Source: a virus
Lineage: Duplodnaviria; Caudoviricetes
IMG/VR virus record: IMGVR_UViG_3300012016_000004
Location: 8,009-72,008 of that record
Strand: one strand, 5' to 3'
Length of the DNA: 64,000 bases
Shown: piece by piece, positions 19,536-48,539 of the stretch
How positions within the stretch are numbered: position 1 is the first letter of the stretch
How the letters are laid out: the number at the start of each line of letters is the position of its first letter
Program-made: the position numbers and the translations under genes
The notes under the pieces: model-generated
What the model saw: only the letters and a program-made list of their open reading frames with translations
The model's database searches: none
What the model was told of the DNA's origin: nothing

Positions 19536-19612
19536 AAACTTACTTTCGTTGAGTTGTTATTTGGTATTGCAAATCTAATCATTTTTTGGGAATTTACCAA
19601 ATAATAACGCAT

Positions 19613-20704: not shown

Positions 20705-20896
20705 ATGAAAGAAGAATTTACAACAGCAATGCACGAGGAACTCATCGGAAAGGAGATTCCTCATAGCGACCTTCTTATCGGCAGTGTTTACGGAGCAATC
20801 AAAAACGGCGTAAAGAAATCTGATGCGCTTGCAAAATACGGAGTATCAGAATCTGAGTACGACCAAAATATCCATCGTGTCTTATACTCCGTTTAG
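20705..20896 (+). CDS. Small protein convergent with muF; candidate antitoxin
   Basis: 63 aa with its own TACCTTTG promoter at 20675-20682; 15-nt tail-to-tail overlap with muF. Confidence 0.5.
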   Translation: MKEEFTTAMHEELIGKEIPHSDLLIGSVYGAIKNGVKKSDALAKYGVSESEYDQNIHRVLYSV

Positions 20897-22726
20897 ATAG
20901 CCCCTCAAGTATGACATCGCTTTCGGATCATCGAGAAACATTACTCCGTCCCAGCTACTTCCATACAAAATAGCCTTTGCTCCAGGAATCTCCGCAAATA
21001 AGCGCATCGGGAAAAGACCTCTATGGTCGATATAGTAGCTATCGTACGCCTTCTTGAAAGCTATACCAAGTTCAGTATTTTCTGCTTCTGCAAGACTGAT
21101 AAACGCCCTTGCCGTTTTGCTATCGGTAGAGAATCCATATCTCGCCCAGCAATAGCCACCCACATCAATATTTGCACGTAAGTCAATCCGGCTGAATTTC
21201 GACCTCTTATACTCATTAAGGAACACATTGAAGACCTTCTTAGATGCACCCTTACCTTGAAACTGGGTTGCCAATTCAAAGCTTTGGTGCTCTACCCTTA
21301 TCTCACCATCAAGCATAGAGAACTGGCGTTCCAATCTGAAATAATCTCCATCAAGAGTCAATCTAAAGGCATTCTGACCATCTACAACCACACGTTTGAA
21401 AGACGCTCCGAATCCATATTCGTCATAGATTGACTGCATACCTCTCTCAATTCGAGGGAGATTAAAATGCGACAGAGGTACACAAGACTCGATGGCCTGC
21501 AAAGCATCCTTTCCAACAAGCTGTTCGCCAGAATTTGTTTTGAAAGCATATCCGGAGGAAATCATCGACTGCACAGATTCAATACTCCATGAGAAACTCT
21601 GTTGCGCTTCTTTAACGATAGCATCTACAACTGCCTTATTGTCTTTGATGAAGTATGGGAGAGACCCTCGCATCTCAGCTTGCGTGATCCTATCACTGTT
21701 GTCCGAAACCCAATCCTTGAAGTTGCCAGGCACATCGCTGATATAATTCTTCGACTGTGTTGTATCGTAATCTTCTCCATTGATGTAGGCCAGTGTCCTC
21801 GCCTCCATCTCCTCATCGGAAATCAGAATCGGCACCATGTAGCACCGGCAGTTCGGATGCCACCCATTCCACTTAAAGTCCTTTGGGTAACGTCCGGCCA
21901 GCGAAGCACACACCGGGCAATCGTAAGGATGGTTACTCCTCTTGATCTCAATACCGACAACATAGTCTTTCTCCAGATAGCTCAACTGCTCCGCGTTCCG
22001 GTAGGCCATGTTAATCTCCGTTCTGGCCAGGCGCTTTGCATTCTTGAAGGAGCTTCTGTAAACACCCTCGCCGGGGTTGTAGGCAGCGGCATTCTTCGAC
22101 AGATGGAGCATCCCAAACTCATCCCGCACCCTGCGGAACAGCTTACTCGGCTCATTCAGCAGTTCCTTCATGGATTCAGCCAGTTCGTCCGCGCTGGTGC
22201 CACTGGCTATGGAGCGGGCCAGTTCCGCTTCTATACGGCTCTGATTTGCAAGATTCCAAACCCTTGAAGAGAGATTGAGACCGCCAATCTGACGGGTCTG
22301 GAAAGCCTTTAGCGCAGTTTCATGATTGTTCAGATGCTCACCAACCATCGAAGCCTTCAATTCGTCCGCAGAGATGCCCAGCTTCTTCATCCGGGAAGTG
22401 AGGCCGGTCTTCTGCATCACATACTCCAGGATACCGTCATTCGCATCCTGCGTACCATGCGCCCACTCGGCTGTGGTCCCAGTGATAATGGTTTGCCCCA
22501 TACCGCGAGCGAGGCTGGCAACAAGGTTGTCAACCTCCCTCTTGATTTCCGGATAGTCGGAGAAATAGAACTGGCCGTCCTTTTCGCGGTCGTAGGATAC
22601 ACTTGTGGACAAGGAAATGAATCGACCAGTAGCCTTTCTCATTAGCGACTCAATGCGCTTGACATACTGCTCGATTCTCCTTAGGTTAGCGGCACCTAAT
22701 CTCTGATAGCTGCCTTCGAGACTCAT
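20882..22726 (-). CDS. MuF/SPP1 gp7-like minor head protein with a C-terminal GNAT-like extension
   Basis: CPVCASLAG...WHPNCRC MuF motif; C-terminus has FQGKGASKK and GGYCWARYGF, GNAT-like motifs. Confidence 0.8.
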   Translation of the reverse strand: MSLEGSYQRLGAANLRRIEQYVKRIESLMRKATGRFISLSTSVSYDREKDGQFYFSDYPEIKREVDNLVASLARGMGQTIITGTTAEWAHGTQDANDGILEYVMQKTGLTSRMKKLGISADELKASMVGEHLNNHETALKAFQTRQIGGLNLSSRVWNLANQSRIEAELARSIASGTSADELAESMKELLNEPSKLFRRVRDEFGMLHLSKNAAAYNPGEGVYRSSFKNAKRLARTEINMAYRNAEQLSYLEKDYVVGIEIKRSNHPYDCPVCASLAGRYPKDFKWNGWHPNCRCYMVPILISDEEMEARTLAYINGEDYDTTQSKNYISDVPGNFKDWVSDNSDRITQAEMRGSLPYFIKDNKAVVDAIVKEAQQSFSWSIESVQSMISSGYAFKTNSGEQLVGKDALQAIESCVPLSHFNLPRIERGMQSIYDEYGFGASFKRVVVDGQNAFRLTLDGDYFRLERQFSMLDGEIRVEHQSFELATQFQGKGASKKVFNVFLNEYKRSKFSRIDLRANIDVGGYCWARYGFSTDSKTARAFISLAEAENTELGIAFKKAYDSYYIDHRGLFPMRLFAEIPGAKAILYGSSWDGVMFLDDPKAMSYLRGYLNGV

Positions 22727-24208: not shown

Positions 24209-25741
24209 TTAGTCCATATCTTCTTCAATTTCCTCGACCGACAGCCCCTTGCTGTCCTTCACCGGATAGAAAGTATTGCACAACGCATCCCACTTATCTG
24301 GCGAGCGGCCAAGCCTTTCCTTGATGTCCTCCTTCTTCTCTATGAGGATGGAGCCGGTGCTGGTAAACGACCACTTGATGGCCGTCGCTTCCTCCAAAAG
24401 CATATCATCTGGCGGCAACATGGCACCAGTCTTGTTCTTCGGATTGAGCCAGTCTCTCACACACCAATGCAGATATGCCCTCATATTGGCAAATTTGTAC
24501 TGTCCGGTTTTATCGGACAGTCCGTTGGCGCCCTCGCTGAACTTACACGAATAGGCATTCTTAATATTCAGTTCCTGGAGCCGAGAGTACACGCCGGCGC
24601 CTTCTCCGATGGTATCAATCAAGGCCCGCGACTTCTTCTTGCTCTGATGAAGGCCGTTGATAGTCATTCCGGCAACCTTCATGTGGTCGGCTTTGCCACC
24701 CGACTGATGCACCTGGAATCTGGAAACGTAGTTGTCGTAGCGGTAGCATAAGTTGGAGCTATCACGGCCCATACCAGCCACATCAACACCAAGGTCCAGA
24801 TCCTCATCCGGAATCCAGTCATCGCCCATCTCCTCCTTTTTCTCCTTCCATCTCTCCTGGGCAAGAGTGACCCACTCGTAAGGGATGAGGCAGTCTTCGG
24901 AGGCGCGAGGGAATAGCCCAAGCACCTTTACACGGAAAAGGTCATTTGGACGATACAGCCCACCTTCCCATTTGAAGTCTCCCTCGCCCTCATTGAAGTC
25001 ATCCGGGTTGTAGATAGGGGTACACCAGTTTTCAACCTTATCGGCCACCCAGCGATAGTCCACCTGGCCGGGGAAAATCATCTGCTTCCTCACGACATTC
25101 TCTGCATTCAGAGAGTTAAGCCGGAAGTGCTTGAATCGGTCAGAGGACATGGCCTTGGCCGCATAGCCGGAAGTGATATTCGGGTTAAACACCAGCAGCA
25201 GCCGTGAATCGCCCTGCAGGTTACCTTCTATGGCATTGTACACCGTTTCCGAGATACCGGATGCTTCCGTCACGGCGAACATGATGTGGACGGCATGGAG
25301 ACCGGACCAAGACTCTGTTTCCTCCGCTGCCTTGAAGCCGGTCAGAAACCATTCCTCATACGGAGTCTTAATCTTCGAGGACTGGAGTATGCCAGGAAGG
25401 AATCCGGCCCGGCGGTAGAGCCTGGAGATTTCCGGCATCATGATGTTATACACCTGCCGGCCGGTAGGCGCAGTCATGATGACCTTCGTATTCTCAACCA
25501 GCTCTCCCTTCTTGTTGAATCTGGGGGTCAGATATAGAAAGCAGAGGCATCCGCAGGCCGAGACAAAATCCTTGCCCCTTGAGGTCCCGGATGCCACTGC
25601 TGTCATCGGATTCGTTTGGAGGGATTCGATGATGGCTTGCTGTTCTTTGTCAAGACGAGCACCAAGCACATCCCGGACAAACTTGTTCCAGTCTGCCCGC
25701 CAAGACATCATGTATTTCAGTCCTTTCTCGTTTACCTCCAT
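24209..25741 (-). CDS. Terminase large subunit
   Basis: Walker A-like VASGTSRGKD, Walker B-like FAVTEASG, nuclease motifs GVDVAGMGRD and RSPDKWDA. Confidence 0.92.
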   Translation of the reverse strand: MEVNEKGLKYMMSWRADWNKFVRDVLGARLDKEQQAIIESLQTNPMTAVASGTSRGKDFVSACGCLCFLYLTPRFNKKGELVENTKVIMTAPTGRQVYNIMMPEISRLYRRAGFLPGILQSSKIKTPYEEWFLTGFKAAEETESWSGLHAVHIMFAVTEASGISETVYNAIEGNLQGDSRLLLVFNPNITSGYAAKAMSSDRFKHFRLNSLNAENVVRKQMIFPGQVDYRWVADKVENWCTPIYNPDDFNEGEGDFKWEGGLYRPNDLFRVKVLGLFPRASEDCLIPYEWVTLAQERWKEKKEEMGDDWIPDEDLDLGVDVAGMGRDSSNLCYRYDNYVSRFQVHQSGGKADHMKVAGMTINGLHQSKKKSRALIDTIGEGAGVYSRLQELNIKNAYSCKFSEGANGLSDKTGQYKFANMRAYLHWCVRDWLNPKNKTGAMLPPDDMLLEEATAIKWSFTSTGSILIEKKEDIKERLGRSPDKWDALCNTFYPVKDSKGLSVEEIEEDMD

Positions 25742-25757
25742 TTCTCATAGTCGTACT

Positions 25758-26984
25758 CTATCGGACGATTCCTCGATACAGATAGTCGCGCAGCTCCGGC
25801 AAGGTCATCTTTCCGATGCCAAGGTAGTCAAGGCTGTACTTCGATGTGGCTCTGAGGTCTTTCTCATGGAAGGCAGAACCAATGACGATCATCGAATCAA
25901 TGACCGGAGTTGGAACGCCGAACTTCGCGCCCAGCTCGCTGTAAATCTTGCATCCGACCGGAATGTCCTCCGTGATGTAACGGTGGTTGATATTGTCCGG
26001 TCCAGTATTGCCTTCATCGCACGGCTTGTCCAGAGGGAACACCACATTGTCCCTTCCGCTGGCATCAAGGCCCATGTACTCTGCCGTGAGGATGCTGCGC
26101 CGGGAGAAGAACTGCTCGTACTCATACTCCGGGTACTTGATACCGATAGCATCGGCAATAGCGCACTCCTCTTTGTAGAACCGGTACTGTGTTCTGCAGA
26201 TGGAAGGGCAAAGGCCATGCGAGTACATGGAATAGCTGCCGGGGGCATTCCCGTACACTTCCCAATTCTCCATGCTTGAAACGCCAAGCAATGACGCAGG
26301 GACATGGATAACCGGGTTCACATTGGAGAAACCGATGTCAAGCATCGTATCGCCGACCACCGGACCGTCCCCCTTTGTCACAGACTCCATGCACGGTAGA
26401 TAGTCCACGGAATCCATGAACGTTGCAATGTCCGTCATCGGAAGGCAAGCACCGCGAAGACTGATGGCCCGATACTTAACACCAACATGGTTGGTCCAGA
26501 ATCCGGCCACCTTCTCTATCCTCGTGCCGTAAGGAGCGGAAGACCATCCTCCAACGATAACATCCTTTGTACAACCGGCTTCACGCATCAGTTTCCTGAG
26601 CAGCAAGCTCGCGTAGTTGTCCGGGAACGTGTGGATAATCATTCCGTCCTCCAGCAGCGGGACGAGTTTCCGCAGGTAGTCTTCGTGGGCAAGCGCAGGG
26701 ACAGAGATGAGTATGAGCTTTGCTCCTCTCACCGCCTCGGCCATGTCGTTCGTAACGACATCAAGAAATGCACGGCCAGAACGTTCGAATCCATACAGAT
26801 TGCGCTGGATACCGTCAAGCAGGATGCCGGTGCGCTCTACATACTGGATAGACTTCGGGCTACGCGAGTACAGACGGACCTCGCGGCCGGCCAGCTTGCA
26901 GTCAGCAGCGAGTGTCTTTCCGACGGCGCCACCACCGAGTACGGCGATGGGGCAGTCTTTCAGATAGGTTAAATTCTTCATCAT
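25758..26984 (-). CDS. NAD(P)-dependent opine (octopine/nopaline) dehydrogenase family protein
   Basis: Rossmann motif IAVLGGGAVGKTLAA; NVNPVIHVP and HRYITEDIPVG...TPVIDSMI, typical of the opine dehydrogenase C-terminal domain. Confidence 0.85.
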   Translation of the reverse strand: MMKNLTYLKDCPIAVLGGGAVGKTLAADCKLAGREVRLYSRSPKSIQYVERTGILLDGIQRNLYGFERSGRAFLDVVTNDMAEAVRGAKLILISVPALAHEDYLRKLVPLLEDGMIIHTFPDNYASLLLRKLMREAGCTKDVIVGGWSSAPYGTRIEKVAGFWTNHVGVKYRAISLRGACLPMTDIATFMDSVDYLPCMESVTKGDGPVVGDTMLDIGFSNVNPVIHVPASLLGVSSMENWEVYGNAPGSYSMYSHGLCPSICRTQYRFYKEECAIADAIGIKYPEYEYEQFFSRRSILTAEYMGLDASGRDNVVFPLDKPCDEGNTGPDNINHRYITEDIPVGCKIYSELGAKFGVPTPVIDSMIVIGSAFHEKDLRATSKYSLDYLGIGKMTLPELRDYLYRGIVR

Positions 26985-27011
26985 AAACTTACTTTCGTTA
27001 TTTGGGTACTA

Positions 27012-27353
27012 TTATTCCGGATTATCCGGGAGTTTCTTCATCATCTCCTCGAAGGGATTCAGCTGGACCTTGTTCTCCACCGTCTCCACATAGCCACGTT
27101 CTTTACCCTTCGTCTTTAAGAAGAAGATGAGGCAGGTATCGTTCCCCGCATCTATCTTCTCTATGAGCTTGGACTCTGCCCAGTCAATCAGAGACTCGTC
27201 AACGTCCTTGAGCATCTCCGCAAGTTTCGGAAACGACTTCCTCCAATGGTAGAACTGTGTGCGCCCACATCCGAGAGCAGTGCAGGTGGCAGACACGTTG
27301 CCACCCTTCTTCTCATACACCTTTGCAATGGTTGCAAAACTTGGTCTTTTCAT
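27012..27353 (-). CDS. Terminase small subunit-like HTH protein
   Basis: GNVSATCTALGCGRTQFYHW...IFFLKTKGKERGYVE. Confidence 0.75.
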   Translation of the reverse strand: MKRPSFATIAKVYEKKGGNVSATCTALGCGRTQFYHWRKSFPKLAEMLKDVDESLIDWAESKLIEKIDAGNDTCLIFFLKTKGKERGYVETVENKVQLNPFEEMMKKLPDNPE

Positions 27354-27364
27354 ATCTTCTCCTC

Positions 27365-28216
27365 CTATTTTGTTGCGGTCTCAACGACCTTGCGAATAAA
27401 TTCATCATATTCTATCCCGGCGCATTCTTTGGCGCAACCGGCCAGGTGGTCCGTGGCGCCGAGACATGGGTACAGATTGAGGTCAATGAGCACGTAGTCT
27501 CCGTCCAGTGTCTGACGGAAGTCTATTCTCATGTATCTCTTGGCGCCGACCGCCCAGAAAGCGGCCCGTGCATAGCGGATCAGCTTATCATCAATCAGCG
27601 GATGGCAGACATCCACCTCCTTGAACTTGAGTTCGTGAGTGAGGATGCCGGACTTACTCTCATACTCAAGTATGACCGGCCAGCAATCCGGAACGCCAGT
27701 CTTGTAATTGGCTACGAGGCCGACGGTGCAGTCGCGCCCTTCCACAAACTCCTCGATAATGGCATGGTCATTAAGGGTGGTCTCAATCTCCACGACCTTC
27801 TTGCGGATTGCCTCGCGAGACGTGCAGATGGAGTCCTCGTCAATACAGTTGCTATCTTCGCCATGCATCGGCTTGACGAAATAACGGCCACCGTCACAAG
27901 GCTCTATGACGGTTTCTGGGACACGAACTCCGGCCTGCCGGAGCAAACCCTTACTGATTGCCTTATCGTGCGTCAGATGCACCGTTTCCCGGCTTTCTGC
28001 CGTAGTGTATGCGCACGTCGCAACAAGCTTGTCAATGATGGTGCGGTTCCTGGTCTGAACGAGAATCCTATCGCTGGGACAGATATAGTGAAAATCATCG
28101 TCCTCCGTGGCGAAGATTCTCTTGATATTGGAGCCGAACACCCTTTCAAGGTGGGCATACCTTTCGTCCGGCATGAAGGCGCTTTCCTCGCGCCTGGTGG
28201 TTACAACGTAAATCAT
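27365..28216 (-). CDS. ATP-grasp ligase (D-Ala-D-Ala-ligase-like C-terminal domain)
   Basis: HDKAISKGLL..AGVRVP, FVKP, IEEFVEGRD, RIDFR...DLNLYP. Confidence 0.8.
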   Translation of the reverse strand: MIYVVTTRREESAFMPDERYAHLERVFGSNIKRIFATEDDDFHYICPSDRILVQTRNRTIIDKLVATCAYTTAESRETVHLTHDKAISKGLLRQAGVRVPETVIEPCDGGRYFVKPMHGEDSNCIDEDSICTSREAIRKKVVEIETTLNDHAIIEEFVEGRDCTVGLVANYKTGVPDCWPVILEYESKSGILTHELKFKEVDVCHPLIDDKLIRYARAAFWAVGAKRYMRIDFRQTLDGDYVLIDLNLYPCLGATDHLAGCAKECAGIEYDEFIRKVVETATK

Positions 28217-28224
28217 ACTGATAC

Positions 28225-28956
28225 CTATTTCTTTCCCGCTGATTCAAAAGCCGTCATACTATCTCCTATTTGCATCAGAGCCAGCTCCAGAATCTTCGAG
28301 AATATGATGTTTGAGGATTTGATTTCGAGCTTCTGATTTATCTCCTTGGAGAGCTTGAGATACAGCTCCTCGTTCGGCTCGTTCTCGGCCATGACAACGA
28401 CATCGCTTTTCTTGATAGCCTCACGCAACTCCCCGACCAGTTCCTCGAAATACTGCATGGCCTTGTTATACAGAACAAGCGTGACCGTGAAGGTCTCCTT
28501 CTCCAGAGGGGATGCGATGGAACCGACATCAATGTTGCCGATTTCGTCAATGTTGATGTGGGCGAACTTCTTGAAGTCAACACTCGAAATGCTTTCGAAC
28601 AATTTCTTCAAGATGCTCTTGTTGTCTGTCCCATGCAAGGAGTTGTGGGAAAGCTGGATTGCTACAATCTCATCTTTCGTCAATTCTGACTCCAGGGCAT
28701 AAAGAATGCCTATCTCTGTGAAGCCCTTCTTGCGACATGCATGGACACGATGATGACCACTGATGATAGTAAACCGGCCATTCTCCCGCTTATAGCAGGT
28801 CGGCACCGAACTTAAACCACTCCGGCCGATGTTCTCGACCAACTGATTGAAGTCATCGTCAGACATCATGTTGGCATTCAACTCGGCATCGTCTATCATG
28901 TCGATGGGTACGACCTCGTACTTCCATCGGTTTTCCACTTTATCCTTTTGCTGCAT
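28225..28956 (-). CDS. ParB/Sulfiredoxin N-terminal domain protein
   Basis: ELNANMMSDDDFNQLVENI...FTIISGHHRVHAC. Confidence 0.85.
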   Translation of the reverse strand: MQQKDKVENRWKYEVVPIDMIDDAELNANMMSDDDFNQLVENIGRSGLSSVPTCYKRENGRFTIISGHHRVHACRKKGFTEIGILYALESELTKDEIVAIQLSHNSLHGTDNKSILKKLFESISSVDFKKFAHINIDEIGNIDVGSIASPLEKETFTVTLVLYNKAMQYFEELVGELREAIKKSDVVVMAENEPNEELYLKLSKEINQKLEIKSSNIIFSKILELALMQIGDSMTAFESAGKK

Positions 28957-30997
28957 CGTTGACAGATTTTAAGTATGTTTTGATGATTTCCTCGTTATCG
29001 GCAAACCGGCCAAGGTGGCCCACATAGAAAAGTGAGTTCGGAGTGCATCTCTCCTTCACCTTGTTGTACAGACCACGGTACTTCATGGACACCGGCTTCT
29101 TCGTATAGGCAATAGTGAAGACTGACTCCGCTTCCATGCGATTGAAACGGGACAGAATCTTCTTTACCTCCTTTGACAGAAGGCACATCAGCACCAGGCG
29201 GGACAGCCGGGGAACGGCATTGTTCGTGGCGAAATCACAGAGCTGCTCCATGTCATATTCCTTCGCCGGCGATTTGGTGAAGCCAAAACCACCAAGCAGA
29301 TAGTCTCCGTACATCACGACAAAGCTGAGCCTGGGGCTTTGGAATGAGTTGACCTTATACACGAAATGCTCCTGCAGGATTCGGAAGTCAACGGCGCACC
29401 GTCTGATAGACAGCAGCGCGGGGTCATTGATATACAGATCATCCGGAGGCACCTTGTAATCCACCTGGTTCGGAAGCTGGTCGTTCACGATGATGGCAGA
29501 CGTCTTCGGCTTCGGATGGTTGCTATAAAGATACTTCCCGAAATCCTTCGAGCCATGCCCGGTGTCGAACAAGGCAATCTTGTGAAGGTTCATCAGATAC
29601 GGCGTCTCGCTGAACACATAGAAGTTCACATCGTCCGGGACACTCTCTACCAGGCCGTCATACTCCGTTGGCTTGACATCCCAGTCTTCCACTTCGCAGT
29701 TCCTCCGATAGATGCCGAACGTGCGCTTTGAGGTCTTATCTCCGACCAGCTGGAAAAGGATGTTCTTTTCTCCGTTAGCGAGGGCATCATGGACCGTCCC
29801 ACGAACATACCGGCACGAGGTCAGCATGTCGATGTAGAACTGGGCCTGCTCACGCATGTTTGCGATGCTCTCGTGCATCTTCTCTCGGTAAGCGGCCACT
29901 TCATCATCCTTGAACTCGTTCCCGCCTTCTATGACCTTTCTGAGCTTCGTGACGATGAGAAGGAGCGACACCTGGCGCAAAGGCGTGTTGTCATTATACT
30001 CCTCCAACCACGCGATGTCCTTCTTGAATGTCACGGTCATCTGTCCAGTGGCCAGCAGGTACAGCAGGTGGCAGTAATTGTTCTGATTGTAGATGACAAG
30101 CTTCGGCACCTTCTTGAACAGAGCGCTCTCAAAGCCAAACATGTTCGGATTCACGCAGCAAATCTCATCGAGGTTCAAGTCAACGAGCGCCTTGACCATC
30201 TTCTGGTTGCTGTCGATGGCTTTCGCCATGAAGCATTCCTTGGGATGGTACGGATTGCCCATGTAAAGCAGCGGAGGGATGAGAGCCGGCATCTCCTTCG
30301 GCAGCTTCGTAAGCGCCATGAACTCCTCGTAGGAGCGGATGGACTTGAAGTCTTCTTCGGTGTGATGGATGGCGTATTCAAACATCCGGTAGGCAGACAG
30401 AACACAGTTGAAGGCCAGTTCCGGAGACTGCGTAGCATTGAAGCAGCGGAACTCAACTGTCTTCGTCTTGAACACGGCTGCTATATTGATGAGGAAACGG
30501 ATGTAGCCCTTCTTACTCTGGTTCGACAGAGTGTTTTGCAGGTCTTGCATCGTCTCGCACTTCTTCACACGCTCGTAGTAACTTGGAGTGATGGCAGGCT
30601 GGCAGTTGAACACCTTGTCATTCCAGTCACCCCAGTTGTTATGCTGGTTGATATACGGCGTCAGAAAATACGTGAAGAAGAAAACGCGCTTCAATTCTTC
30701 AACGGTCAGGTCGCCGGCGTAGATGTGGACATGCGTATCGATAGACCACTTGAGCTTGCCACCATGCTTCTTCATCTGGTCGTATAGGTAAACGAGGTCA
30801 TCCCGGTCCTTCCAACAAAGATGAAGCGGAGGGGTGTTCACCTCGCCGCCGTATTGTTTGCTTACCTGGCCGTCGGTATTGAAAATTTGCTCATCTGGGC
30901 TCCATGAATAACCTGCAGGGAGAGAGACGCGCGTTCGATCCACATTGCACATCTCTATCTCCATTCCGAAAGTCCTCTCTGTGATTTTCAGTTCCAT
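28940..30997 (-). CDS. Fusion: amidoligase (COOH-NH2 ligase) + degenerate methylase-like domain + Mom-like GNAT
   Basis: N-terminal FGMEIE / EVNTPPL / THVHI / TVEFR amidoligase motifs; C-terminal FVVMYGDYLLGGFGF...VPRLSRLVL...TIAYTKKPVSMKYRG resembles Mom-type GNATs. The middle domain is the weakest call. Confidence 0.7.
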   Translation of the reverse strand: MELKITERTFGMEIEMCNVDRTRVSLPAGYSWSPDEQIFNTDGQVSKQYGGEVNTPPLHLCWKDRDDLVYLYDQMKKHGGKLKWSIDTHVHIYAGDLTVEELKRVFFFTYFLTPYINQHNNWGDWNDKVFNCQPAITPSYYERVKKCETMQDLQNTLSNQSKKGYIRFLINIAAVFKTKTVEFRCFNATQSPELAFNCVLSAYRMFEYAIHHTEEDFKSIRSYEEFMALTKLPKEMPALIPPLLYMGNPYHPKECFMAKAIDSNQKMVKALVDLNLDEICCVNPNMFGFESALFKKVPKLVIYNQNNYCHLLYLLATGQMTVTFKKDIAWLEEYNDNTPLRQVSLLLIVTKLRKVIEGGNEFKDDEVAAYREKMHESIANMREQAQFYIDMLTSCRYVRGTVHDALANGEKNILFQLVGDKTSKRTFGIYRRNCEVEDWDVKPTEYDGLVESVPDDVNFYVFSETPYLMNLHKIALFDTGHGSKDFGKYLYSNHPKPKTSAIIVNDQLPNQVDYKVPPDDLYINDPALLSIRRCAVDFRILQEHFVYKVNSFQSPRLSFVVMYGDYLLGGFGFTKSPAKEYDMEQLCDFATNNAVPRLSRLVLMCLLSKEVKKILSRFNRMEAESVFTIAYTKKPVSMKYRGLYNKVKERCTPNSLFYVGHLGRFADNEEIIKTYLKSVNDAAKG

Positions 30998-31018
30998 AAT
31001 CCGCAGCTAATAAAAAAG

Positions 31019-31089
31019 AGCGGAGAGACCGATTCGAACAGCCGCCTCGATGCAGGAAGCACCGCGCTCTACCACTGAGCTATCTCCGC
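31019..31089 (-). tRNA. tRNA-Gly(UCC), atypical (U37, G38, two G-U pairs in the T-stem; CCA not encoded)
   Basis: GCGGAGA-TA-GCTC AGTGGTA GAGC-G-CGGTG CTTCCTG CATCG-AGGC-GGCTG TTCGAAT CGGTC-TCTCCGC-T; carries the Gly identity elements C2:G71 and U73. Confidence 0.88.
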
Positions 31090-31116
31090 TTTGGTGGGGA
31101 CTTCATCGTCCCCTAT

Positions 31117-31563
31117 CTAAAACAACCCGTCAAAGAGGCTTGGCTCCTCAAGTACCGGCGTTTGCATCTGTTTTGCCACCTGCTCCTCAATCTGCTTCTG
31201 GTCCGGTTCCCATTCCTTGATTTCAAGTCCGGTCTCCCTGAGCATCCAGTCGGCGAACAGTCTGCGGTGGCAGAAGTCTCCAGGCTTTTCGTAACAGAGC
31301 AGAGCGGCATCCTTGCCTTGCGACATCCTTTCGATGTCAGCGATGACCTGGGCCGGATTCAGATGGCCTACGACATCTCTGTAGTACATCTGAATATACT
31401 GCTCCCTTGTTACCTCATCCTTCATCATATACCGTTTCGGCGCGAGGTACTGGAGATGCAATCCTTGAAAGAACTTCGGCGGCCAAAGTGCGATTCCAAT
31501 CGGGACTATGCCAGCCTCTCTTAATTTGCCCTGGCGGGCGAAATAGGATGTATAAATTTCCAT
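31117..31563 (-). CDS. DUF488-family protein
   Basis: MEIYTSYF...LLCYEKPGDFCHRRLFADW; start moved to 31563. Confidence 0.8.
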   Translation of the reverse strand: MEIYTSYFARQGKLREAGIVPIGIALWPPKFFQGLHLQYLAPKRYMMKDEVTREQYIQMYYRDVVGHLNPAQVIADIERMSQGKDAALLCYEKPGDFCHRRLFADWMLRETGLEIKEWEPDQKQIEEQVAKQMQTPVLEEPSLFDGLF

Positions 31564-31578
31564 TTCCTTTTGTATATG

Positions 31579-31612
31579 CAAATCTACAAATAATTTTCCA
31601 AATAGTTGCAAA
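31579..31612 (-). promoter_or_regulatory. Promoter of the modification/packaging operon
   Basis: -7 TAGATTTG at 31579-31586, with a TTTG at about 31609-31612. Confidence 0.6.
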
Positions 31613-34072: not shown

Positions 34073-34492
34073 TCATTTCAGCTCTTTTACATATTGAATC
34101 AGATGTTCATCCTCGCCATCGAATGAGTAACCAAGCCGTTGATACCAGGCGGCAGTGAAGCTATCTTTCTCGGAGCTGATTAAAGCTATGTTTGCACCAA
34201 GATAGCGAGCCTCATCCTCGGCTGCGTCAATAAGGTCTGACGCATATCCTTTCCTCCGCTTTGACGGGATAACGGATAATGCGTGGATTGTAGCGACATT
34301 CGGATCATCGTCTTCAACGGATACAGAAACACTTCCAGCGCCATCGTCTGTGATGATGTGTGTCGAATATCCCCACCAGTTCCTATTCCGATGATAGACA
34401 TAGCGAATATCAGCATCGTTCCCTTCACTGCATCTTAAAACGGCAACCGTAATAGCGATGCCAAGGACAAAACCAATTATCAGTAGCATCAT
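34073..34492 (-). CDS. GNAT acetyltransferase with a hydrophobic N-terminus
   Basis: IHALSVIPSKRRKGYASDLI...AWYQRLGY. Confidence 0.8.
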   Translation of the reverse strand: MMLLIIGFVLGIAITVAVLRCSEGNDADIRYVYHRNRNWWGYSTHIITDDGAGSVSVSVEDDDPNVATIHALSVIPSKRRKGYASDLIDAAEDEARYLGANIALISSEKDSFTAAWYQRLGYSFDGEDEHLIQYVKELK

Positions 34493-35069: not shown

Positions 35070-35850
35070 CTATTTCCTCCTTTTTTTCTTCGGTGGTGTA
35101 TAATTGGAGCCACGATTACCGGCACCACATTCTTTCCGGTCATTCTGCGAGCCAGTACATTTGTTAAGCTCGCAACTCCATTTCTTGCAGCAATCACATC
35201 CCATAACTATTCAATCTTAATGGTTATCGAGCAAGGCGTAGCCTTCTCGTCCTCCCACTTGACAGACGGGAACTCCGTGTCTTTGAGCCGGAGAATCGGA
35301 TTGTTCCAGGATGAAGTCCAGTGGCCATGTTTATAGCATGGCGCACAAGGCAACTTGATTGGCTCAACGGTGAAGACGGCAAGACTACCATTTTCATCTC
35401 GCGCTACAAATCCGTCGATGACCTTTTCCTTCTTGTGGCCATGGAAAATCTTAGCGACCATATCCTTGGCCCAGTTCATTTTTTCTTCTCTTGTGTGTGG
35501 CATTATTCTGTATCTTTAACAAAATTGCTTAAACGTGCGAGGCTATCGCATTCTTGGTCGAGAATATCTCTGAGTTCATGGAAGATGCTCCACACTGCCT
35601 CCGGTGGAACCTCTATTTCTTCCGGCTTTTCTCGACGATTTACGAAGACTTTGAATAGAAAAGACTTCTTCTCCTTTTTCGGCAATTCCAGCAAGGCTCT
35701 GCCATCTTTATAGAACCAGAGCAACTGCTGCAAGAAAAAGTGGAGCTTGGAAATTTCTTTGGCTGCTGGCAACTCAATTCCGAATAGATTTTTTGAGTAT
35801 GAGAGCAACTTCTTGATTTGCTCATCTGTCCATTTCTTTCCCATAATCAC
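35070..35850 (-). CDS. Small hypothetical proteins (35070-35204 Cys-rich 44 aa, read manually; 35207-35503; 35503-35850)
   Basis: Operonic spacing; MGCDCCKKWSCELNKC... Confidence 0.45.
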
Positions 35851-36638
35851 ATCCCTATATTGAAGATGTCGATAGGCTCCTGGGCCGGAAGACCGAGATA
35901 GTCCGTGAGACTTTTCTTCAAGTACACGTTGCGGCCTCTTGACAAAATAGCCTCTGTCATCCGCTCAACCTCGTCGCGATTATACGTCGAGAGACTGATT
36001 CCGCTTTGCAGCCCAACTTTGAACAGGTCACAGCAGTCTTCTATTTGGTAGAACACACTGAGAGTTGATACCGGATCAATCACGGGTTCCAGAGAGGCGA
36101 ACGTTCGGAACCCATTCTTCTTGAGTAGGTGCATTGTCTTTACCCGTTTCGTATTGTCAGATGCACCTGGCTCCAAATCATCACGTCCGGTGAGGGTGAA
36201 TCCAAAAGCGAGGTACTCGCTATAATGTAACCCACTCGTGTTAGACACAATGCGACTTAATGCTTCATCCAAGATGAAGTCCGCATTCTTTGTGAGGAGC
36301 TGGCACCTTACGCGGCGCTGGATTGCGTAGTCAATACACCTTACGTTCAAAGCTCGTGTCTCCGGAATTAGCGGGTCGCTTGAGAATGTAAAGAACAGAC
36401 TCGACTGACGGATCGCATCAATGTTCGAGTCCAGCTCTTTGACAAATACCTCGAAAGCGTGCTGCTCGTTGCGGAAGCAGGATTTCAGTTTAGCAACGGG
36501 GCCACCCATTACATGAGCGAGGACACCCCTCTTGCAGTAGCAGTAGTAGCAGTTGTTGCTGCATCCAACGTACAGATTGCAGGCCCATTCGGCATACTCG
36601 CCGGCCTTGCCTTTCGGCTTGTAGATAGCTTTACTCAT
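35847..36638 (-). CDS. Radical SAM protein (SPL-like)
   Basis: CxxxCxxC motif: VGCSNNCYYCY. Confidence 0.85.
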   Translation of the reverse strand: MSKAIYKPKGKAGEYAEWACNLYVGCSNNCYYCYCKRGVLAHVMGGPVAKLKSCFRNEQHAFEVFVKELDSNIDAIRQSSLFFTFSSDPLIPETRALNVRCIDYAIQRRVRCQLLTKNADFILDEALSRIVSNTSGLHYSEYLAFGFTLTGRDDLEPGASDNTKRVKTMHLLKKNGFRTFASLEPVIDPVSTLSVFYQIEDCCDLFKVGLQSGISLSTYNRDEVERMTEAILSRGRNVYLKKSLTDYLGLPAQEPIDIFNIGM

Positions 36639-39627: not shown

Positions 39628-40190
39628 TTCTTCCTGAACTTATTTGACTGGTAGCGTGCAAACTTGTGCTGCTCTCGTAAAGCGTTAGCCCTTTTTCTCC
39701 TATCGTCTTCGATACGGACTTCGACTTGGGAGAAGAAATCTTTGATGTCTATCTTCGGCTCGAAACATTCTTCTTTGGGCTGAAAGCTTTCTGTTACTAT
39801 TTCGTCCGGAATAACGCTTGTAATGTCTTTGATTTCTTTTGGAAGAGTCTGAATACCGATGTCATCACCTATCTCTGGTCTAACGACTATTCTTACCACG
39901 TTGTATTCTTTTGCAAAGAACGCTACCGATTTTGTAACATCGGAACTCCCAACAAAAAGGACAATCGGGTTTTTGCTCGCCTTTGCACGAATAAGCGATT
40001 CGACTTCTTCACGAAATTCACACTCCTCCGTGCAGCCAACACAACGGGCCTTGTACTTCACTTGACCACGTCCGTATTTCAGTGTTGGGCAATACGGATT
40101 TCCAAGCAGATCAAACTCTATCTTTGACATCTTGTGAGTTATTTCGAATACTTCAAATAGCCTTCGACGATAAAATACTCGTCCGAACAC
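39624..40190 (-). CDS. Hypothetical protein
   Basis: 188 aa ORF; true start uncertain. Confidence 0.45.
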   Translation of the reverse strand: MFGRVFYRRRLFEVFEITHKMSKIEFDLLGNPYCPTLKYGRGQVKYKARCVGCTEECEFREEVESLIRAKASKNPIVLFVGSSDVTKSVAFFAKEYNVVRIVVRPEIGDDIGIQTLPKEIKDITSVIPDEIVTESFQPKEECFEPKIDIKDFFSQVEVRIEDDRRKRANALREQHKFARYQSNKFRKK

Positions 40191-40978
40191 GTGCCGTCAG
40201 TGAAGTAGTTCAGACTATTGATAGACGTCTCCACCGTTCGCCAAAAATTGACTTCCTTGCCATAGAGCATATATCTCTGCGCAAGGTGGAAATCTGTTAT
40301 TCTATCCTGCTTATGCGCATCAGAGAACTTCTCATAGAAGCGCTCATACAGAGTAATGTCTTCTTCCAGCAGTTCGTACCTTGTGTCGGTGGATATTCTT
40401 CTAACTTGGATGTATCGAACGTTTTCAAACTTGCTGATATACTTGATGAGGTCATCGAATTCATCCACGTTATATCTGCAGAGAACGATTGAAATTCGAA
40501 CATTATCTCCGCTTGCAGGAATGATATAATCCCAGTCCGGAATCGTACTGAAGCCCATTATCTTCTTGTTGACGTCCGGCTTCAATGTGTGGATGGAATA
40601 CGCAATCTCGTCCTTCATTGCGTGAATGCAATCCATCTTCTGTTTGGCAAGGATGCCGTTGGTTCTGACACCAACGAGGAAGCCCTGGCCCTGCAGAAAA
40701 TCAATAATCTCGGCCAAATACTTGTACTGGAGACCGTCAGCCGTTTGGCCGGTCAGATAGAGCTTCTTGATTCCTTCCTCTTTACATGTCTCAAGGAACG
40801 TATCAAAGTTCTTCCACTCTGAAAAGTGTACGTTCAGCTGGTTCTTTCCAGCGAGATTCTCGCTGATGTCTTTTCCAAGGCAGAAATAGCAATTTGCATT
40901 GCAGGCGCCAAGCAGGTTGATGTTCGCGAAAGAGAATCCTTCGCGGTTTCTATTCTTTTTGATTTCAACTTTTTCCAT
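40139..40978 (-). CDS. Radical SAM protein
   Basis: GACNANCYFC motif, then LYLTG and VRTNG. Confidence 0.85.
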   Translation of the reverse strand: MEKVEIKKNRNREGFSFANINLLGACNANCYFCLGKDISENLAGKNQLNVHFSEWKNFDTFLETCKEEGIKKLYLTGQTADGLQYKYLAEIIDFLQGQGFLVGVRTNGILAKQKMDCIHAMKDEIAYSIHTLKPDVNKKIMGFSTIPDWDYIIPASGDNVRISIVLCRYNVDEFDDLIKYISKFENVRYIQVRRISTDTRYELLEEDITLYERFYEKFSDAHKQDRITDFHLAQRYMLYGKEVNFWRTVETSINSLNYFTDGTCSDEYFIVEGYLKYSK

Positions 40979-47530: not shown

Positions 47531-48060
47531 AGGATTATTATCTCATTCTCATGCCGGCGTGAGATGTAGGCAAAGACCTCATCCCGCTGCACAAGGCGTT
47601 CTTTCACTTTACGACCATGTGCCTTGGCATAGGCAAGGCACCATTCGAAATCAGTAGTCCACGATATGCCTGGGTCTGGTATTCTGTCATAGGCCCGCCA
47701 GACTTTCAGAGGGAAAGTCATCTCCTCCAAAGTCTTCGCATCTTCAACGGTCATAAACCAGCCCTTGCATGGCCTTTTTGACTGGAAGAACGGACGGAAC
47801 TTATCTGCCAGGTCAGTTGAACCAACTCCCACCCAAACAGTGCGAAGCAGCTCCCAGTAGCGAGGATTAGAGAGGAGCCTGGACTTTCTGAACCAAATGT
47901 CCAGTGTCTTTTCCTCTGACTGCTCTACATCATACGCATTGACGAGCTGGCGGGCAATCTTTGCATCCATCGCCAGCTGCTTATTCGACAGCGCCGGGAT
48001 TCTTCGCGTGAACTCCGTCTGGTCAGTATTCGGCCTGGTATGGTTATAGACGGTTATCAT
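47527..48060 (-). CDS. Putative ADP-ribosyltransferase (R-S-E type)
   Basis: KVWRAY...GISWTTD...RHENEIII matches the R / S-x-T / E-x-E layout. Confidence 0.5.
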   Translation of the reverse strand: MITVYNHTRPNTDQTEFTRRIPALSNKQLAMDAKIARQLVNAYDVEQSEEKTLDIWFRKSRLLSNPRYWELLRTVWVGVGSTDLADKFRPFFQSKRPCKGWFMTVEDAKTLEEMTFPLKVWRAYDRIPDPGISWTTDFEWCLAYAKAHGRKVKERLVQRDEVFAYISRRHENEIIIL

Positions 48061-48539
48061 CTTCCGGAACTCCCATAACCGTTGGCGCCGCGCTCCGTGG
48101 AATCCAGCTCATCAACTTCGATGAACTCGATGTCGCACGTAAAGCCGATCTTGATTTGTCCGATTCTATCTCCGACGTGATACCTGGGCATGTTGGGCAT
48201 CACGTGATAGAACACCGCGCTTATCTCGCCGGTATAGCCTTCATCTATTGTTCCAGTGCAGTTCGACAGAACCATACCTGTCTTCCATACTGATGAGCGA
48301 GGACGAAGGTCGATTGATAACCTTCCCTGGTTTACGTACACCCTATGAGATTTCGTCTCATAAGCGATGGAAGTCAGTTGCTCCTTGTCAATCTGCAGAG
48401 CGAAACCAAGCCCATAGCGCCAAACATTCGGAGCTATTTCCTCCTCAGTGACGGCAGTCACATCATAACAGAAATCTGTCTTATTTGCTTTTGTAGGGAT
48501 GACTGCATCCGGGTGCAGTCTCTTAAATTTAAGTATCAT
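48057..48539 (-). CDS. dut: dUTPase
   Basis: RPRSS...GTIDEGYTGEI...GDRIGQ...RGANGYGSSG. Confidence 0.92.
   Translation of the reverse strand: MILKFKRLHPDAVIPTKANKTDFCYDVTAVTEEEIAPNVWRYGLGFALQIDKEQLTSIAYETKSHRVYVNQGRLSIDLRPRSSVWKTGMVLSNCTGTIDEGYTGEISAVFYHVMPNMPRYHVGDRIGQIKIGFTCDIEFIEVDELDSTERGANGYGSSGR

Follow-up and report, generated by a model that had tools for sequence, protein, structure and literature searches.

A candidate tRNA-Gly-dependent DNA hypermodification module in the packaging operon of a temperate gut phage

Mom from phage Mu transfers glycine from Gly-tRNA(Gly) to the N6 of adenine in double-stranded DNA, late in infection (Silva et al. 2026, PMC13219725). It acts as a single enzyme with tRNA from the host, and recognizes DNA through an HTH-like insert within the protein itself. 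In staphylococci, an extra tRNA-Gly serves FmhB, FemA, and FemB; it keeps the identity elements for GlyRS, has UGC instead of UUC in its T-loop (a mark of these non-proteogenic tRNAs), and lacks further features on which EF-Tu and the ribosome depend (PMC7826273). In the phages M6, ViI, and PaMx11, amino-acid-derived groups are added to thymidine stepwise after replication, and the gene clusters encode transferases, radical SAM isomerases, acetyltransferases, and uncharacterized amidoligases (Lee et al. 2021, PMC8989533). These pathways begin with 5-hydroxymethyl-dU, a kinase, and an amino-acid:DNA transferase, and they do not use tRNA. Another phage enzyme, a thymine dioxygenase, needs the adjacently-encoded ParB-like protein, which has no obvious DNA-binding domain, to act on double-stranded DNA (PMC13229309).

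Here we describe a locus from a 64-kb window (the whole stretch of viral DNA that was analyzed). We lean towards the view that it is a DNA hypermodification module of a Bacteroidales-type temperate gut phage. On the minus strand, the genes are ordered as DUF488-N3a, tRNA-Gly(UCC), a 685-amino-acid fusion protein, a ParB-like protein, an ATP-grasp ligase, a TerS-like protein, an opine dehydrogenase, and TerL, which the original prediction described as the end of the operon. Every feature that it had named, with its position, was found in place on this strand. The spacing between genes ranges from a 17-nt overlap (between the start of the ParB-like gene and the end of the fusion gene) to 28 nt. 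Late expression is presumed, given that the packaging operon begins with the module. Among the ~40 ORFs of the window that we scanned, we did not find a 5-hydroxymethyl-dU pathway, a kinase, or an amino-acid:DNA transferase, in contrast to the M6, ViI, and PaMx11 clusters. The proposed module would resemble those clusters in adding amino-acid-derived groups to a base in successive steps.

A promoter-like site of the Bacteroidetes type (TTTG ... TAGATTTG) matches the consensus at 31579..31612 on the minus strand; its TAGATTTG at 31579-31586 agrees with the Bacteroidetes -7 box, TAnnTTTG. When we scanned the 64 kb for TTTG-N17-23-TAnnTTTG, there were only two matches, at 31579-31612 and 19570-19601. 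Both are intergenic, on the coding strand, and upstream of an operon. Since two matches where one is expected is not significant on its own, we consider 31579-31612 to be a plausible promoter for the operon.

The fusion protein (28940-30997, minus strand) combines Amidoligase_2, DAM-like-phage2, and GNAT-phage-like domains. Amidoligase_2 proteins are glutamine-synthetase-like COOH-NH2 ligases. Residues 1-215 (30353..30997) match this family (PF12224; E = 1.5e-13 to 4e-15; 56.8 bits, with a cutoff of 22), and E13, E15, H89, H91, E182, and R184 are invariant in our alignment.

Residues 216-480 (29558..30352, minus strand) form a Dam-like fold with a helical insert and match PF22556 (DAM-like-phage2; E = 2.8e-33 to 6e-34). 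The top match of the AF2 model (pLDDT 82) is E. coli Dam (Foldseek E = 0.014). With VIA, Dam aligned over 158 residues (Z = 8.2, rmsd 4.4), and the next methylase family had Z = 6.0. The [DNS]PP[YFWH] motif (DPPY) is absent from all 98 fusion proteins in which we sought it. We propose that the domain is catalytically dead and that it grips DNA and flips a base. A Dam-like fold without the methylase motifs suggests that the target is a DNA base, most simply adenine.

The remaining residues, 481-685 (28943..29557, minus strand), match the acyltransferase family PF22559 (GNAT-phage-like; E = 1.7e-29 to 1.6e-30). The original prediction had this domain as Mom-like, and as far as the fold goes, this holds up: the domain is a GNAT, and the top PDB match of its AF2 model (pLDDT 82.6) is Mom (8BV8) by both Foldseek (E = 5.8e-5) and VIA (Z = 10.7, rmsd 2.9, 133 residues). 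But Mom leads the generic acetyl-CoA GNATs by less than one Z unit in VIA, which is effectively a tie. Membership in the Mom family by sequence had to be rejected, as PF25680 does not match the GNAT domain even at E = 10 and hhalign to Mom gives a probability of 0.2%. We were unable to place either the essential residues of Mom or its HTH-like insert on the window's GNAT domain. Many GNATs are recognized by Q/RxxGxG/A, the CoA pyrophosphate loop motif. In our alignment, this motif was not found at the turn after strand 4, which instead reads T-N-N-x-x-P-R. We propose that the GNAT domain is a candidate transferase with Gly-tRNA as its donor.

Besides belonging to a different sequence family (PF22559 instead of PF25680), the phage enzyme differs from Mom in its fused and apparently dead Dam-like domain for DNA, in its ParB-like and DUF488 companions, and, in many members, in having its own tRNA. 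The phage in the window adds two ligases and an opine dehydrogenase.

The DUF488-N3a protein (31117..31563, minus strand; 148 amino acids) matches PF22751 (E = 1.6e-8; 35.3 bits, with a cutoff of 27) and phrog_2450 (E = 4e-31), and it belongs to the rhodanese-phosphatase superfamily. The motif C..E.P..FCHR is invariant in an alignment of 22 relatives. The start codon is the ATG at 31563; we rejected a longer ORF, up to 31680, because it overlaps the upstream gene. The ParB/Srx-like protein (28225..28956, minus strand; 243 amino acids) matches phrog_7405 (E = 1.7e-63) and several ParB PHROGs (E ~ 1e-11), scores under the cutoff for Pfam's ParB_N, and has a conserved S-G-H-H-R (GHHR) box in our alignment. 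As with the ParB-dependent dioxygenase, the ParB-like gene adjoins the gene for a putative DNA-modifying enzyme. By analogy, we propose that the ParB-like protein loads or activates the fusion enzyme on DNA, although the partner in the described system is an Fe/2-oxoglutarate dioxygenase and the fusion protein is a predicted partner.

The ATP-grasp ligase (27365..28216, minus strand; 283 amino acids) matches PF07478 (Dala_Dala_lig_C; E = 1.5e-9; 38.1 bits, with a cutoff of 24). All of its PDB matches at E < 0.1 are Ddl, and its scores against the NCBIfam models for Ddl are far under their cutoffs. By sequence, it is a distant relative of D-Ala-D-Ala ligase. The small HTH protein that follows (27012..27353, minus strand) is probably the terminase small subunit: it matches phrog_309 (E = 4.4e-6), with HTH_23 and HTH_29 under their cutoffs, and 24 of 25 relatives have a TerS-like protein at the corresponding place, as a rule immediately upstream of TerL. 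Between TerS and TerL lies the opine dehydrogenase (25758..26984, minus strand; 408 amino acids), which matches PF02317 (Octopine_DH; E = 8e-32) and aligns over its full length with the CENDH structure 1BG6 (E = 3e-23). Its His, Arg, and Asp align with H202, R292, and D297 of 1BG6. TerL (24209..25741, minus strand) matches phrog_2 (E = 4.6e-24), and TerL proteins of relatives are 63-76% identical to it.

The tRNA-Gly(UCC) at 31018..31089 (minus strand) was identified by ARAGORN and by Rfam RF00005 (52.1 bits). It has G1-C72, C2-G71, G3-C70, U73, and C35C36, and the gene does not encode CCA. The D-loop and T-loop are normal, unlike the T-loop of the staphylococcal tRNA-Gly. Because it deviates only at positions 37 and 38 (U37/G38) and in its T stem, which has two G-U pairs, it might still decode. 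We propose it as a candidate private glycyl donor. Across the loci, 47 distinct tRNAs share these identity elements (G1-C72, C2-G71, G3-C70, U73, and C35C36), and we consider these to be Gly-type. Just 13 of them are canonical. The anticodon loop has 6 nt in nine, A34 is present in 11, and six with 7-nt loops lack U33; three have a pyrimidine at position 37, including the window's tRNA. The UGC T-loop of the staphylococcal tRNAs is found in 18 of the 47, and 17 of these 18 lack G18G19. Thus, many of these tRNAs keep the identity elements for GlyRS and break the rules for decoding, in contrast to the canonical tRNA-Gly genes of Prevotella, the host. The staphylococcal tRNAs are not viral, and the phage tRNAs differ from them in being tied to a DNA-type enzyme and in having many broken anticodon loops. 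Among the phage's other genes is one for an RtcB tRNA ligase.

We examined the gene neighborhoods of 25 relatives (dereplicated at <88% identity in the fusion protein). The genes were predicted to travel together, and they do: ParB is present in all 25, the ATP-grasp in 24, DUF488 in 23, and any tRNA in 22. An Octopine_DH-family gene is present in 18/25, though elsewhere: in 17 of the 18, it is flanked immediately by the tRNA and the fusion gene; in the other 7, none was found within 8 kb. The tRNA slot holds a Gly-type tRNA in 20/25. There is no tRNA in L009 or L097, and the slot holds only Met, Asn, Arg, Ser, or Lys tRNAs in L039, L040, L069, and L070.

A core of four parts (DUF488-N3a, tRNA-Gly, Dam-like plus GNAT, and ParB-like) is shared with actinophages, including cultured Mycobacterium phages such as Jeon. 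Jeon gp65 is homologous to the window's DUF488 (hhalign 98.3%), its tRNA-Gly(UCC) overlaps the start of gp68, gp68 comprises DAM-like-phage1 (E = 9e-86) and GNAT-phage-like (E = 2e-57), and gp69 is homologous to the ParB-like protein (hhalign 99.1%). In 80 distant loci from IMG/VR (the Dam1+GNAT class), the ParB-like gene adjoins the GNAT gene in 79. About three quarters of these loci have no tRNA nearby. Where there are tRNAs within 2 kb, 20 of 21 are Gly, mostly between DUF488 and the GNAT gene; those farther away are Met, Met, Arg, Gln, SeC, and Gly. The predicted link to tRNA-Gly is thus specific, and it recurs in Bacteroidales phages, mycobacteriophages, and other, unrelated lineages. That this family keeps a tRNA-Gly gene alongside suggests the donor that Mom uses. 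On the other hand, the relatives with other tRNAs or none, and the mostly bare distant loci, show that the slot can also be an ordinary tRNA island. And because the tRNA is often missing, the enzyme must often depend on a host tRNA.

The original prediction knew of no description of this combination of genes. This needs to be tempered: the window's proteins exceed the curated cutoffs of their Pfam families, so the architecture is already catalogued, as DUF488-N3a (PF22751), phage Dam-like 1 and 2 (PF22555 and PF22556), and phage GNAT-like (PF22559). We take these families to stem from Burroughs and Aravind in 2023. The entries are family names with putative functions.

From the domain identities, gene linkage, and tRNA features computed here, we infer a donor, a target, an order of steps, a product, and a biological role. 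Our preferred reading, to which we assign a probability of roughly 55%, is that a DNA base, probably adenine, is modified in a tRNA-Gly-dependent way and that the ligases and the opine dehydrogenase then enlarge the modification. The host's GlyRS would charge a private tRNA-Gly that suits the ribosome poorly or not at all. The dead Dam-like module would grip duplex DNA and present a base, most simply adenine, and the GNAT domain would transfer glycine from Gly-tRNA(Gly) to the exocyclic amine of the base, which is the step that was demonstrated for Mom. The ParB-like protein would load or activate the enzyme on DNA, as was demonstrated for the thymine dioxygenases. The free glycyl amine could then be extended, with the fused amidoligase and the ATP-grasp forming one amide bond each and the opine dehydrogenase attaching a carboxyalkyl group from a 2-keto acid. 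On packaged DNA, the resulting adduct would be bulky, resembling a peptide or an opine, and would protect against host nucleases. If so, then the phage brings its own glycyl donor tRNA for a Mom-like kind of DNA modification. Overall, the sequence evidence partly supports the original prediction.

Several observations weigh against this reading. The GNAT domain is outside the Mom family, with a structural lead of under one Z unit; 7 of 25 relatives lack a nearby opine dehydrogenase; and the window's tRNA is near-normal, with non-Gly or missing tRNAs in some relatives. Also, N6-acyl adenine is reportedly unstable and rearranges (PMC13219725), so the free amine for the ligases would be lost unless tailoring is fast.

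The same enzymes and tRNA-borne glycine might act on something besides a DNA base: the DNA ends made by terminase, a phage protein (such as terminase, portal, or ParB), or tRNA itself, with the Dam-like domain as just a nucleic-acid clamp. The genes are immediately before TerS and TerL both here and in L139, whose lineage is unrelated and whose terminase is of another family; DUF488 is within a phosphatase-like superfamily; and the motifs that contact adenine N6 have been lost. Burroughs and Aravind are also said to have predicted in 2023 that members of the DUF488 clade have roles in DNA-end processing. However, in Jeon the genes are ~8 kb from the genome end and away from terminase, every family member retains the entire Dam-like fold and the helical DNA-recognition insert, and the sole characterized tRNA-dependent GNAT that acts on DNA modifies a base (PMC13219725). 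We consider such an acceptor to be unlikely. A little more doubtful is that the GNAT's donor is an acyl-CoA, or is activated by the amidoligase, with the tRNAs as chance neighbors (an ordinary island, codon supply, or decoys for host anticodon nucleases). This would account for the Met, Asn, Arg, Ser, Lys, Cys, or Phe tRNAs, or none, in some relatives' slots and for the bare distant loci; RtcB could be a sign of tRNA conflict, and CoA-using GNATs fit the fold nearly as well as Mom. It does not fit with the excess of tRNA-Gly within 2 kb (20/21, versus 1/6 farther away), the recurrence across lineages, the retention of GlyRS identity despite 6-nt loops, A34, or missing U33, or the lack of the CoA loop motif.

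Amidoligases, Ddl-like ATP-grasps, opine dehydrogenases, and tRNA-dependent transferases are usual in natural-product and peptidoglycan pathways. The operon could thus make a free small molecule (an opine-capped peptide or an aminoacyl nucleoside) or a cell-wall adduct, with Fem enzymes as a tRNA-dependent precedent (PMC7826273), and not modify DNA. This is improbable given the invariable fusion to a Dam-like module, the adjacent ParB-like gene (79/80 distant and 25/25 related loci), and the core that occurs without any ligase or dehydrogenase; nor did a domain scan of the operon's proteins find a transporter or carrier protein. Least of all do we expect that the GNAT acetylates the amino group of Gly-tRNA(Gly), as TacT or AtaT would, to stop host translation, with the phage tRNA as a decoy or antidote. 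TacT is a Gly-tRNA(Gly)-specific GNAT (as cited in PMC13219725), but TacT-type GNATs retain acetyl-CoA binding, and the loop motif is missing here. Also, phage tRNAs whose anticodon loop has only 6 nt would be unable to rescue translation, and the Dam-like domain, ParB, and the ligases would be left unexplained.

In favor of the preferred reading, the amine-tailoring enzymes are swapped among variants of the locus. In L138, for instance, there is a radical SAM gene that resembles aminomutases, along with an additional acetyltransferase domain.

All of the genes in the original prediction are present in the window and in the order that it gave, as judged from the ORF listing, ARAGORN, Pfam, and PHROGs. 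They lie on the minus strand, as do nearly all of the window's genes. The operon begins with DUF488-N3a (31117-31563; ORF listing, Pfam, and PHROGs) and tRNA-Gly(UCC) (31018-31089; ARAGORN). These are followed by the fusion gene (28940-30997), whose 685-amino-acid product has Amidoligase_2, DAM-like-phage2, and GNAT-phage-like domains in Pfam; by a ParB-like protein (28225-28956; PHROGs), a Ddl-like ATP-grasp protein (27365-28216; Pfam), a TerS-like HTH protein (27012-27353; PHROGs), and an opine dehydrogenase (25758-26984; Pfam); and by TerL (24209-25741; PHROGs), the portal, and a MuF/ADP-ribosyltransferase protein. Spacing within the operon ranges from a 17-nt overlap to 28 nt. We will call the DUF488, tRNA, fusion, ParB-like, ATP-grasp, and opine dehydrogenase genes the kit, and the site between DUF488 and the fusion gene the slot.

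The promoter-like site at 31579-31586 reads TAGATTTG and has TTTG upstream of it. The full Bacteroidetes pattern (TTTG-N17-23-TAnnTTTG) has only two matches in the window: this site and 19570-19601 (minus strand), which is in the gap ahead of the structural genes. A Bacteroidetes-type promoter at 31579-31586 is plausible from its sequence. A scan of the window for sigma-70 promoters and terminators gave no more matches than chance. Relatives are found in the genomes of Prevotella, Paludibacteraceae, and other Bacteroidales. The source record (72,008 bp, of which the window covers 64 kb) is rated complete in IMG/VR. The window encodes a tyrosine integrase (61230-62615, plus strand), so the phage is temperate. 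After the integrase, at the right end of the window, is a Mutator/IS66-like transposase (62866-63855, plus strand), which may be an IS element at the phage's edge. The product of the gene after the portal (20882-22726, minus strand) has a MuF-like head-morphogenesis domain and also matches a Bxa-type ADP-ribosyltransferase PHROG (E = 2e-66); its counterpart in a related locus, L004, matches ADPrib_exo_Tox. This protein may be an enzyme that is packaged or injected with the DNA.

The expectation that homologous loci keep these genes together was borne out. In a large protein collection, 829 relatives have the same three-domain architecture as the fusion protein. We fetched about 100 loci, scored them with tblastn and ARAGORN, and were left with 25 relatives after dereplication at 88% identity. 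The ParB-like gene is present in all 25, the ATP-grasp and TerS-like genes in 24 each, DUF488 in 23, any tRNA in the slot in 22, a Gly-type tRNA in 20, and an Octopine_DH-family gene in 18. The slot of some relatives holds non-Gly tRNAs, or none. The usual place of the opine dehydrogenase gene, seen in 17 loci (Pfam E = 1e-25 to 1e-31), is between the tRNA and the fusion gene. The closest relatives (84% identity) have it four genes upstream, and only the window has it between TerS and TerL. Its presence in 18 of the 25 relatives and its shifting position argue that it is a frequent but movable and dispensable member of the kit, and not a chance insertion. A search for longer fused forms (over 1200 amino acids) found none, which is weak evidence.

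We made several other observations in these loci. One clade has a second family of odd tRNA-like elements in the same slot (L026:6723-6794, L069:6500-6572, L070:2736-2808, L073:6587-6662, and L082:6737-6811). Its members have a common acceptor, (T)AGCAGT...ACTGCG, and an anticodon arm for which a 6-bp stem and a 5-nt loop are the better reading; the anticodons that ARAGORN gives them differ (Arg, Ser, Asn, Ile). A DUF4417 gene occurs at varying positions in the kit (L006:12083-13283, L021:7277-8002, and about 4 kb after the start of the fusion gene in L067), and in L006 it adjoins an ADP-ribosyltransferase-like gene. DUF4417 is reported to be often fused to ParB folds in phages. The large terminase subunit of L001 (11970-14630) has 886 amino acids and a faint match to LAGLIDADG; the insertion is probably an intein or a homing endonuclease.

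The core of the kit extends to cultured phages. A tblastn search of cultured phages matched the GNAT part alone, in the Mycobacterium phages Jeon, Taptic, Megabear, GodPhather, Cepens, Argie, PR, and D12. Scans with single proteins, run on cultured phages and on GTDB genomes, gave this mycobacteriophage GNAT part or nothing, so alignment-based scans were required. In Jeon, gp65 is a DUF488 protein (hhalign 98.3% to the window's family), gp66 lies between gp65 and a tRNA-Gly(UCC), the tRNA overlaps the start of gp68, gp68 has DAM-like-phage1 and GNAT-phage-like domains, and gp69 is ParB-like (hhalign 99.1%).

An exhaustive profile search for the GNAT family gave 573 clusters at 50% identity. 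The family has two main forms, of about 680 amino acids with the amidoligase and about 430-450 without it. We surveyed the short form in 8 sampled contexts and 80 further IMG/VR loci. The ParB-like gene adjoins the enzyme gene in 79 of the 80 loci, and DUF488 is nearby in at least 52. Twenty of the loci have a tRNA within 2 kb (21 tRNAs in total), most often in the slot; 20 of the 21 are Gly, and the last has an acceptor stem of the Gly type. The tRNAs beyond 2 kb are Met, Met, Arg, Gln, SeC, and Gly. In the L139 lineage, the kit is again directly ahead of the terminase, which belongs to a different family. A variant, L138, has an extra lysine-aminomutase-like radical SAM gene and an added acetyltransferase domain.

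The tRNAs themselves are unusual. Using the GlyRS identity set (G1-C72, C2-G71, G3-C70, U73, and C35C36; PMC7826273), we selected 47 Gly-type tRNAs from the 68 distinct slot tRNAs of the Bacteroidales loci. Only 13 of the 47 obey the usual rules for elongators: the anticodon loop is 6 nt long in 9, position 34 is A in 11, U33 is missing from 6 of those with 7-nt loops, and position 37 is a pyrimidine in 3. The T-loop reads UGC instead of UUC in 18, and 17 of these 18 lack G18G19. The UGC T-loop is a hallmark of the staphylococcal tRNA-Gly that feeds cell-wall synthesis and avoids EF-Tu (PMC7826273). The tRNA-Gly genes of the host Prevotella are canonical. From their sequences, the tRNA-Gly genes of the kit look freed from translation. 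The window's tRNA is a milder case and is only mildly abnormal. Like the staphylococcal non-proteogenic tRNA-Gly, it keeps the identity set (G1-C72, C2-G71, G3-C70, U73, and C35C36), but it has neither a UGC/UGU T-loop nor the loss of G18G19 (TTCGAAT and AGTGGTA are both canonical). Its anticodon loop, CUUCCUG, has U37 and G38, and two G-U pairs (G50-U64 and U52-G62) occur in its T stem; its closest relative has A33 in addition.

The original prediction likened the C-terminal domain of the fusion protein to Mom of phage Mu. The GNAT fold stood up, and a relationship in sequence did not; in structure, Mom is the best match by a small margin. An AF2 model of the domain (pLDDT 82.6) has a GNAT fold, and the domain matches PF22559 with 106.5 bits (cut-off 27). 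With VIA, 391 PDB chains align to the model at Z ≥ 8, and all 50 matches listed are GNAT acyltransferases. Mom (8BV8) ranks first by both Foldseek (E = 5.8e-5, TM 0.46) and VIA (Z 10.7, rmsd 2.9, 133 residues). Generic GNATs come next at Z 10.4 to 10.0, so in these comparisons of a predicted model, Mom is ahead of ordinary GNATs by a small margin, within 1 Z unit. Mu Mom scores 253 bits on PF25680, and the window's GNAT domain has no match to that family at E up to 10. With a profile of 26 GNAT sequences, hhalign gave a probability of 0.2% to Mu Mom, and a search of PDB sequences did not find 8BV8. When PDB sequences were searched with profiles for the whole fusion, the GNAT part, or the Dam-like part, all matches were at chance level. 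Mom has essential residues R111, S124, and R151 and an HTH-like insert (175-209). The window's domain has invariant residues of its own, S616-R617 and K639-Y640-R641, which may or may not correspond to those of Mom.

The middle domain matches PF22556 (117.8 bits) and has a Dam fold with a helical DNA-recognition insert. The best matches of its model (pLDDT 82) are E. coli Dam and DpnM (Z 8.2 to 6.8), spanning model residues 44-254, and the next family is at Z 6.0. The [DNS]PP[YFWH] motif is absent from all 98 fusion proteins and from 8 distant members. The hydrophobic-x-G-x-G SAM loop is absent from the six distant Dam-like+GNAT proteins without extra domains, the set that was searched for it. 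Because the DPPY-type motif and, in distant members, the SAM loop are missing, we infer that the middle domain is a Dam scaffold without methylase chemistry, and not an active methylase.

The amidoligase domain matches PF12224 (56.8 bits; cut-off 22), and its acidic, His, and Arg residues are kept, with E-x-E, H-x-H, and E-F-R invariant in 13 relatives. The opine dehydrogenase matches PF02317 (110.8 bits; cut-off 30) and, over its full length, CENDH (1BG6). The catalytic residues of CENDH (H202, R292, and D297) are matched by His, Arg, and Asp in the alignment. The ATP-grasp protein matches PF07478 (38.1 bits; cut-off 24), and every PDB match with E < 0.1 is a Ddl. We considered whether it is a true Ddl and rejected this: its highest score on an NCBIfam Ddl model is 52.9 bits, against a cut-off of 243 for that model. 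The ParB-like protein is under the cut-off for Pfam's ParB_N (16.9 vs. 26.3 bits). It matches ParB PHROGs (E = 2e-11 to 1e-5) and conserves an S-G-H-H-R box, in line with the GxxR pattern of the ParB nucleotide box, and the ParB-like neighbors of the distant members match PF02195. A predicted complex of the fusion protein with the ParB-like protein scored 0.01, which speaks neither for nor against binding.

Mom takes glycine off Gly-tRNA(Gly) and attaches it to adenine N6 in double-stranded DNA, and a rearrangement of the product was seen (PMC13219725). ParB-like helpers also have a precedent (PMC13229309). Given the chemistry of Mom, the fusion of a GNAT to an adenine-methylase scaffold, and the specific company of tRNA-Gly, the core would be a tRNA-Gly-dependent aminoacyl transferase for a DNA base, probably adenine, with the ParB-like protein as its helper. 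The two ATP-dependent amide ligases and the opine dehydrogenase would tailor the DNA-bound glycyl amine, provided that they outpace a rearrangement like that of the Mom product, as all of these add-ons act on amines or carboxylates, and the opine dehydrogenase would be the reductive step that condenses an amine with a keto acid. The aminomutase-like enzyme and the acetyltransferase that are swapped in by relatives fit such tailoring as well. From sequence and analogy, we put the probability of tRNA-Gly-dependent DNA-base modification extended by tailoring enzymes at roughly 0.55; that tRNA-Gly is the donor, taken by itself, seems likely. The main weak points are the narrow lead of Mom, the slots with other tRNAs or none, and the mildly abnormal tRNA of the window. 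More tentatively, and at a little under even odds, a widespread family might bring its own tRNA-Gly, released from decoding, with a sole role as aminoacyl donor for the dead-Dam/GNAT enzyme; in the Bacteroidales branch, the DNA-bound glycine might be extended by the two ligases and capped by the opine dehydrogenase, giving peptide- or opine-like adducts of adenine.

The same chemistry could instead act on DNA ends or on a protein. We consider this unlikely. Slightly less likely again is a CoA-type donor, with tRNAs that are incidental or anti-defence. Generic GNATs do score close to Mom, and some slots are empty. Typical GNATs bind the pyrophosphate of acyl-CoA with a Q/R-x-x-G-x-G/A loop after strand 4; this loop is absent from the window's domain, whose model has T-N-N-x-I-P-R in the turn that joins E103-110 to H118-126. 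Across the family the turn is T-N-N-x-x-P-R, with T, N, and N invariant and no glycine. That the operon makes a free metabolite is improbable. Its ligases and dehydrogenase would suit one, but the ParB-like gene accompanies the enzyme in nearly every locus. Least probable of all is a TacT-like toxin that acts on Gly-tRNA, which would not account for the Dam scaffold or the ligases. As for other routes to modified bases, none of the roughly 40 ORFs of the window that we scanned encodes a thymidine-pathway enzyme (hydroxymethyl-pyrimidine synthase, kinase, or amino-acid:DNA transferase).

To our knowledge, Mom was long the sole enzyme known to modify DNA with a charged tRNA, and it works alone with a host tRNA. 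The original prediction knew of no description of this combination of genes. This holds in part: full-text searches of the available papers found none that describes the kit together with its tRNA, but Pfam has families built for exactly these domains, so the architecture is already catalogued. These families reportedly come from Burroughs and Aravind (2023). If, on the more tentative reading, the tRNA serves only as aminoacyl donor, it would be the first virus-encoded non-proteinogenic tRNA. If tRNA-Gly-dependent modification of DNA is correct, tRNAs withdrawn from translation would have a second, independent example. DNA aminoacylation by tRNA would then be a large modular family in which the tRNAs are dedicated, the scaffold is borrowed from Dam, a ParB-like protein helps, and the tailoring enzymes can be exchanged, and DUF488-N3a and several function-less Pfam families would gain a function. 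Peptide- or opine-like adenine adducts are not known from any DNA; such chemistries would be relevant to restriction evasion and biotechnology and would have consequences for how gut phage DNA is sequenced and analyzed with restriction enzymes. The proposal is directly testable in cultured material: phages of Mycobacterium smegmatis (Jeon, Taptic, Megabear, and others) have the core, and the kit with the opine dehydrogenase is present in prophages of the cultured lysogens Prevotella vespertina A2879 and Prevotella sp. KH2C16.

Upstream of the operon are a small classical GNAT (34073-34492; Acetyltransf_1, E = 2e-10) and two radical-SAM-like genes (35847-36638 and 40139-40978; E = 4e-4 and 4e-8), all on the minus strand. 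Synteny with L004 covers the GNAT and the first radical-SAM-like gene (30% and 72% identity). These could be further tailoring enzymes, as the aminomutase-like radical SAM gene of L138 adjoins the fusion gene.

Two relatives encode genes reminiscent of 2-aminoadenine (Z-base) genomes, of which they are a possible sign: a PurZ-like adenylosuccinate-synthetase-like gene (PF00709) upstream of the kit at L004:1-331, and a dATP/dGTP pyrophosphohydrolase (PF04447) at L140:7707-8159. The window has no PurZ-like gene. In those phages, if they do use Z, diaminopurine might be the enzyme's substrate.

Elsewhere in the window, an RtcB tRNA ligase (48536-49735, minus strand; PF01139, E = 6e-61) is flanked by a dUTPase/dCTP-deaminase-like gene (48057-48539, minus strand) and an N6/N4 DNA methylase (49732-50412, minus strand). 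The methylase is a second, ordinary DNA modification of the same phage, and RtcB suggests that the phage repairs tRNAs that were cut by host nucleases.
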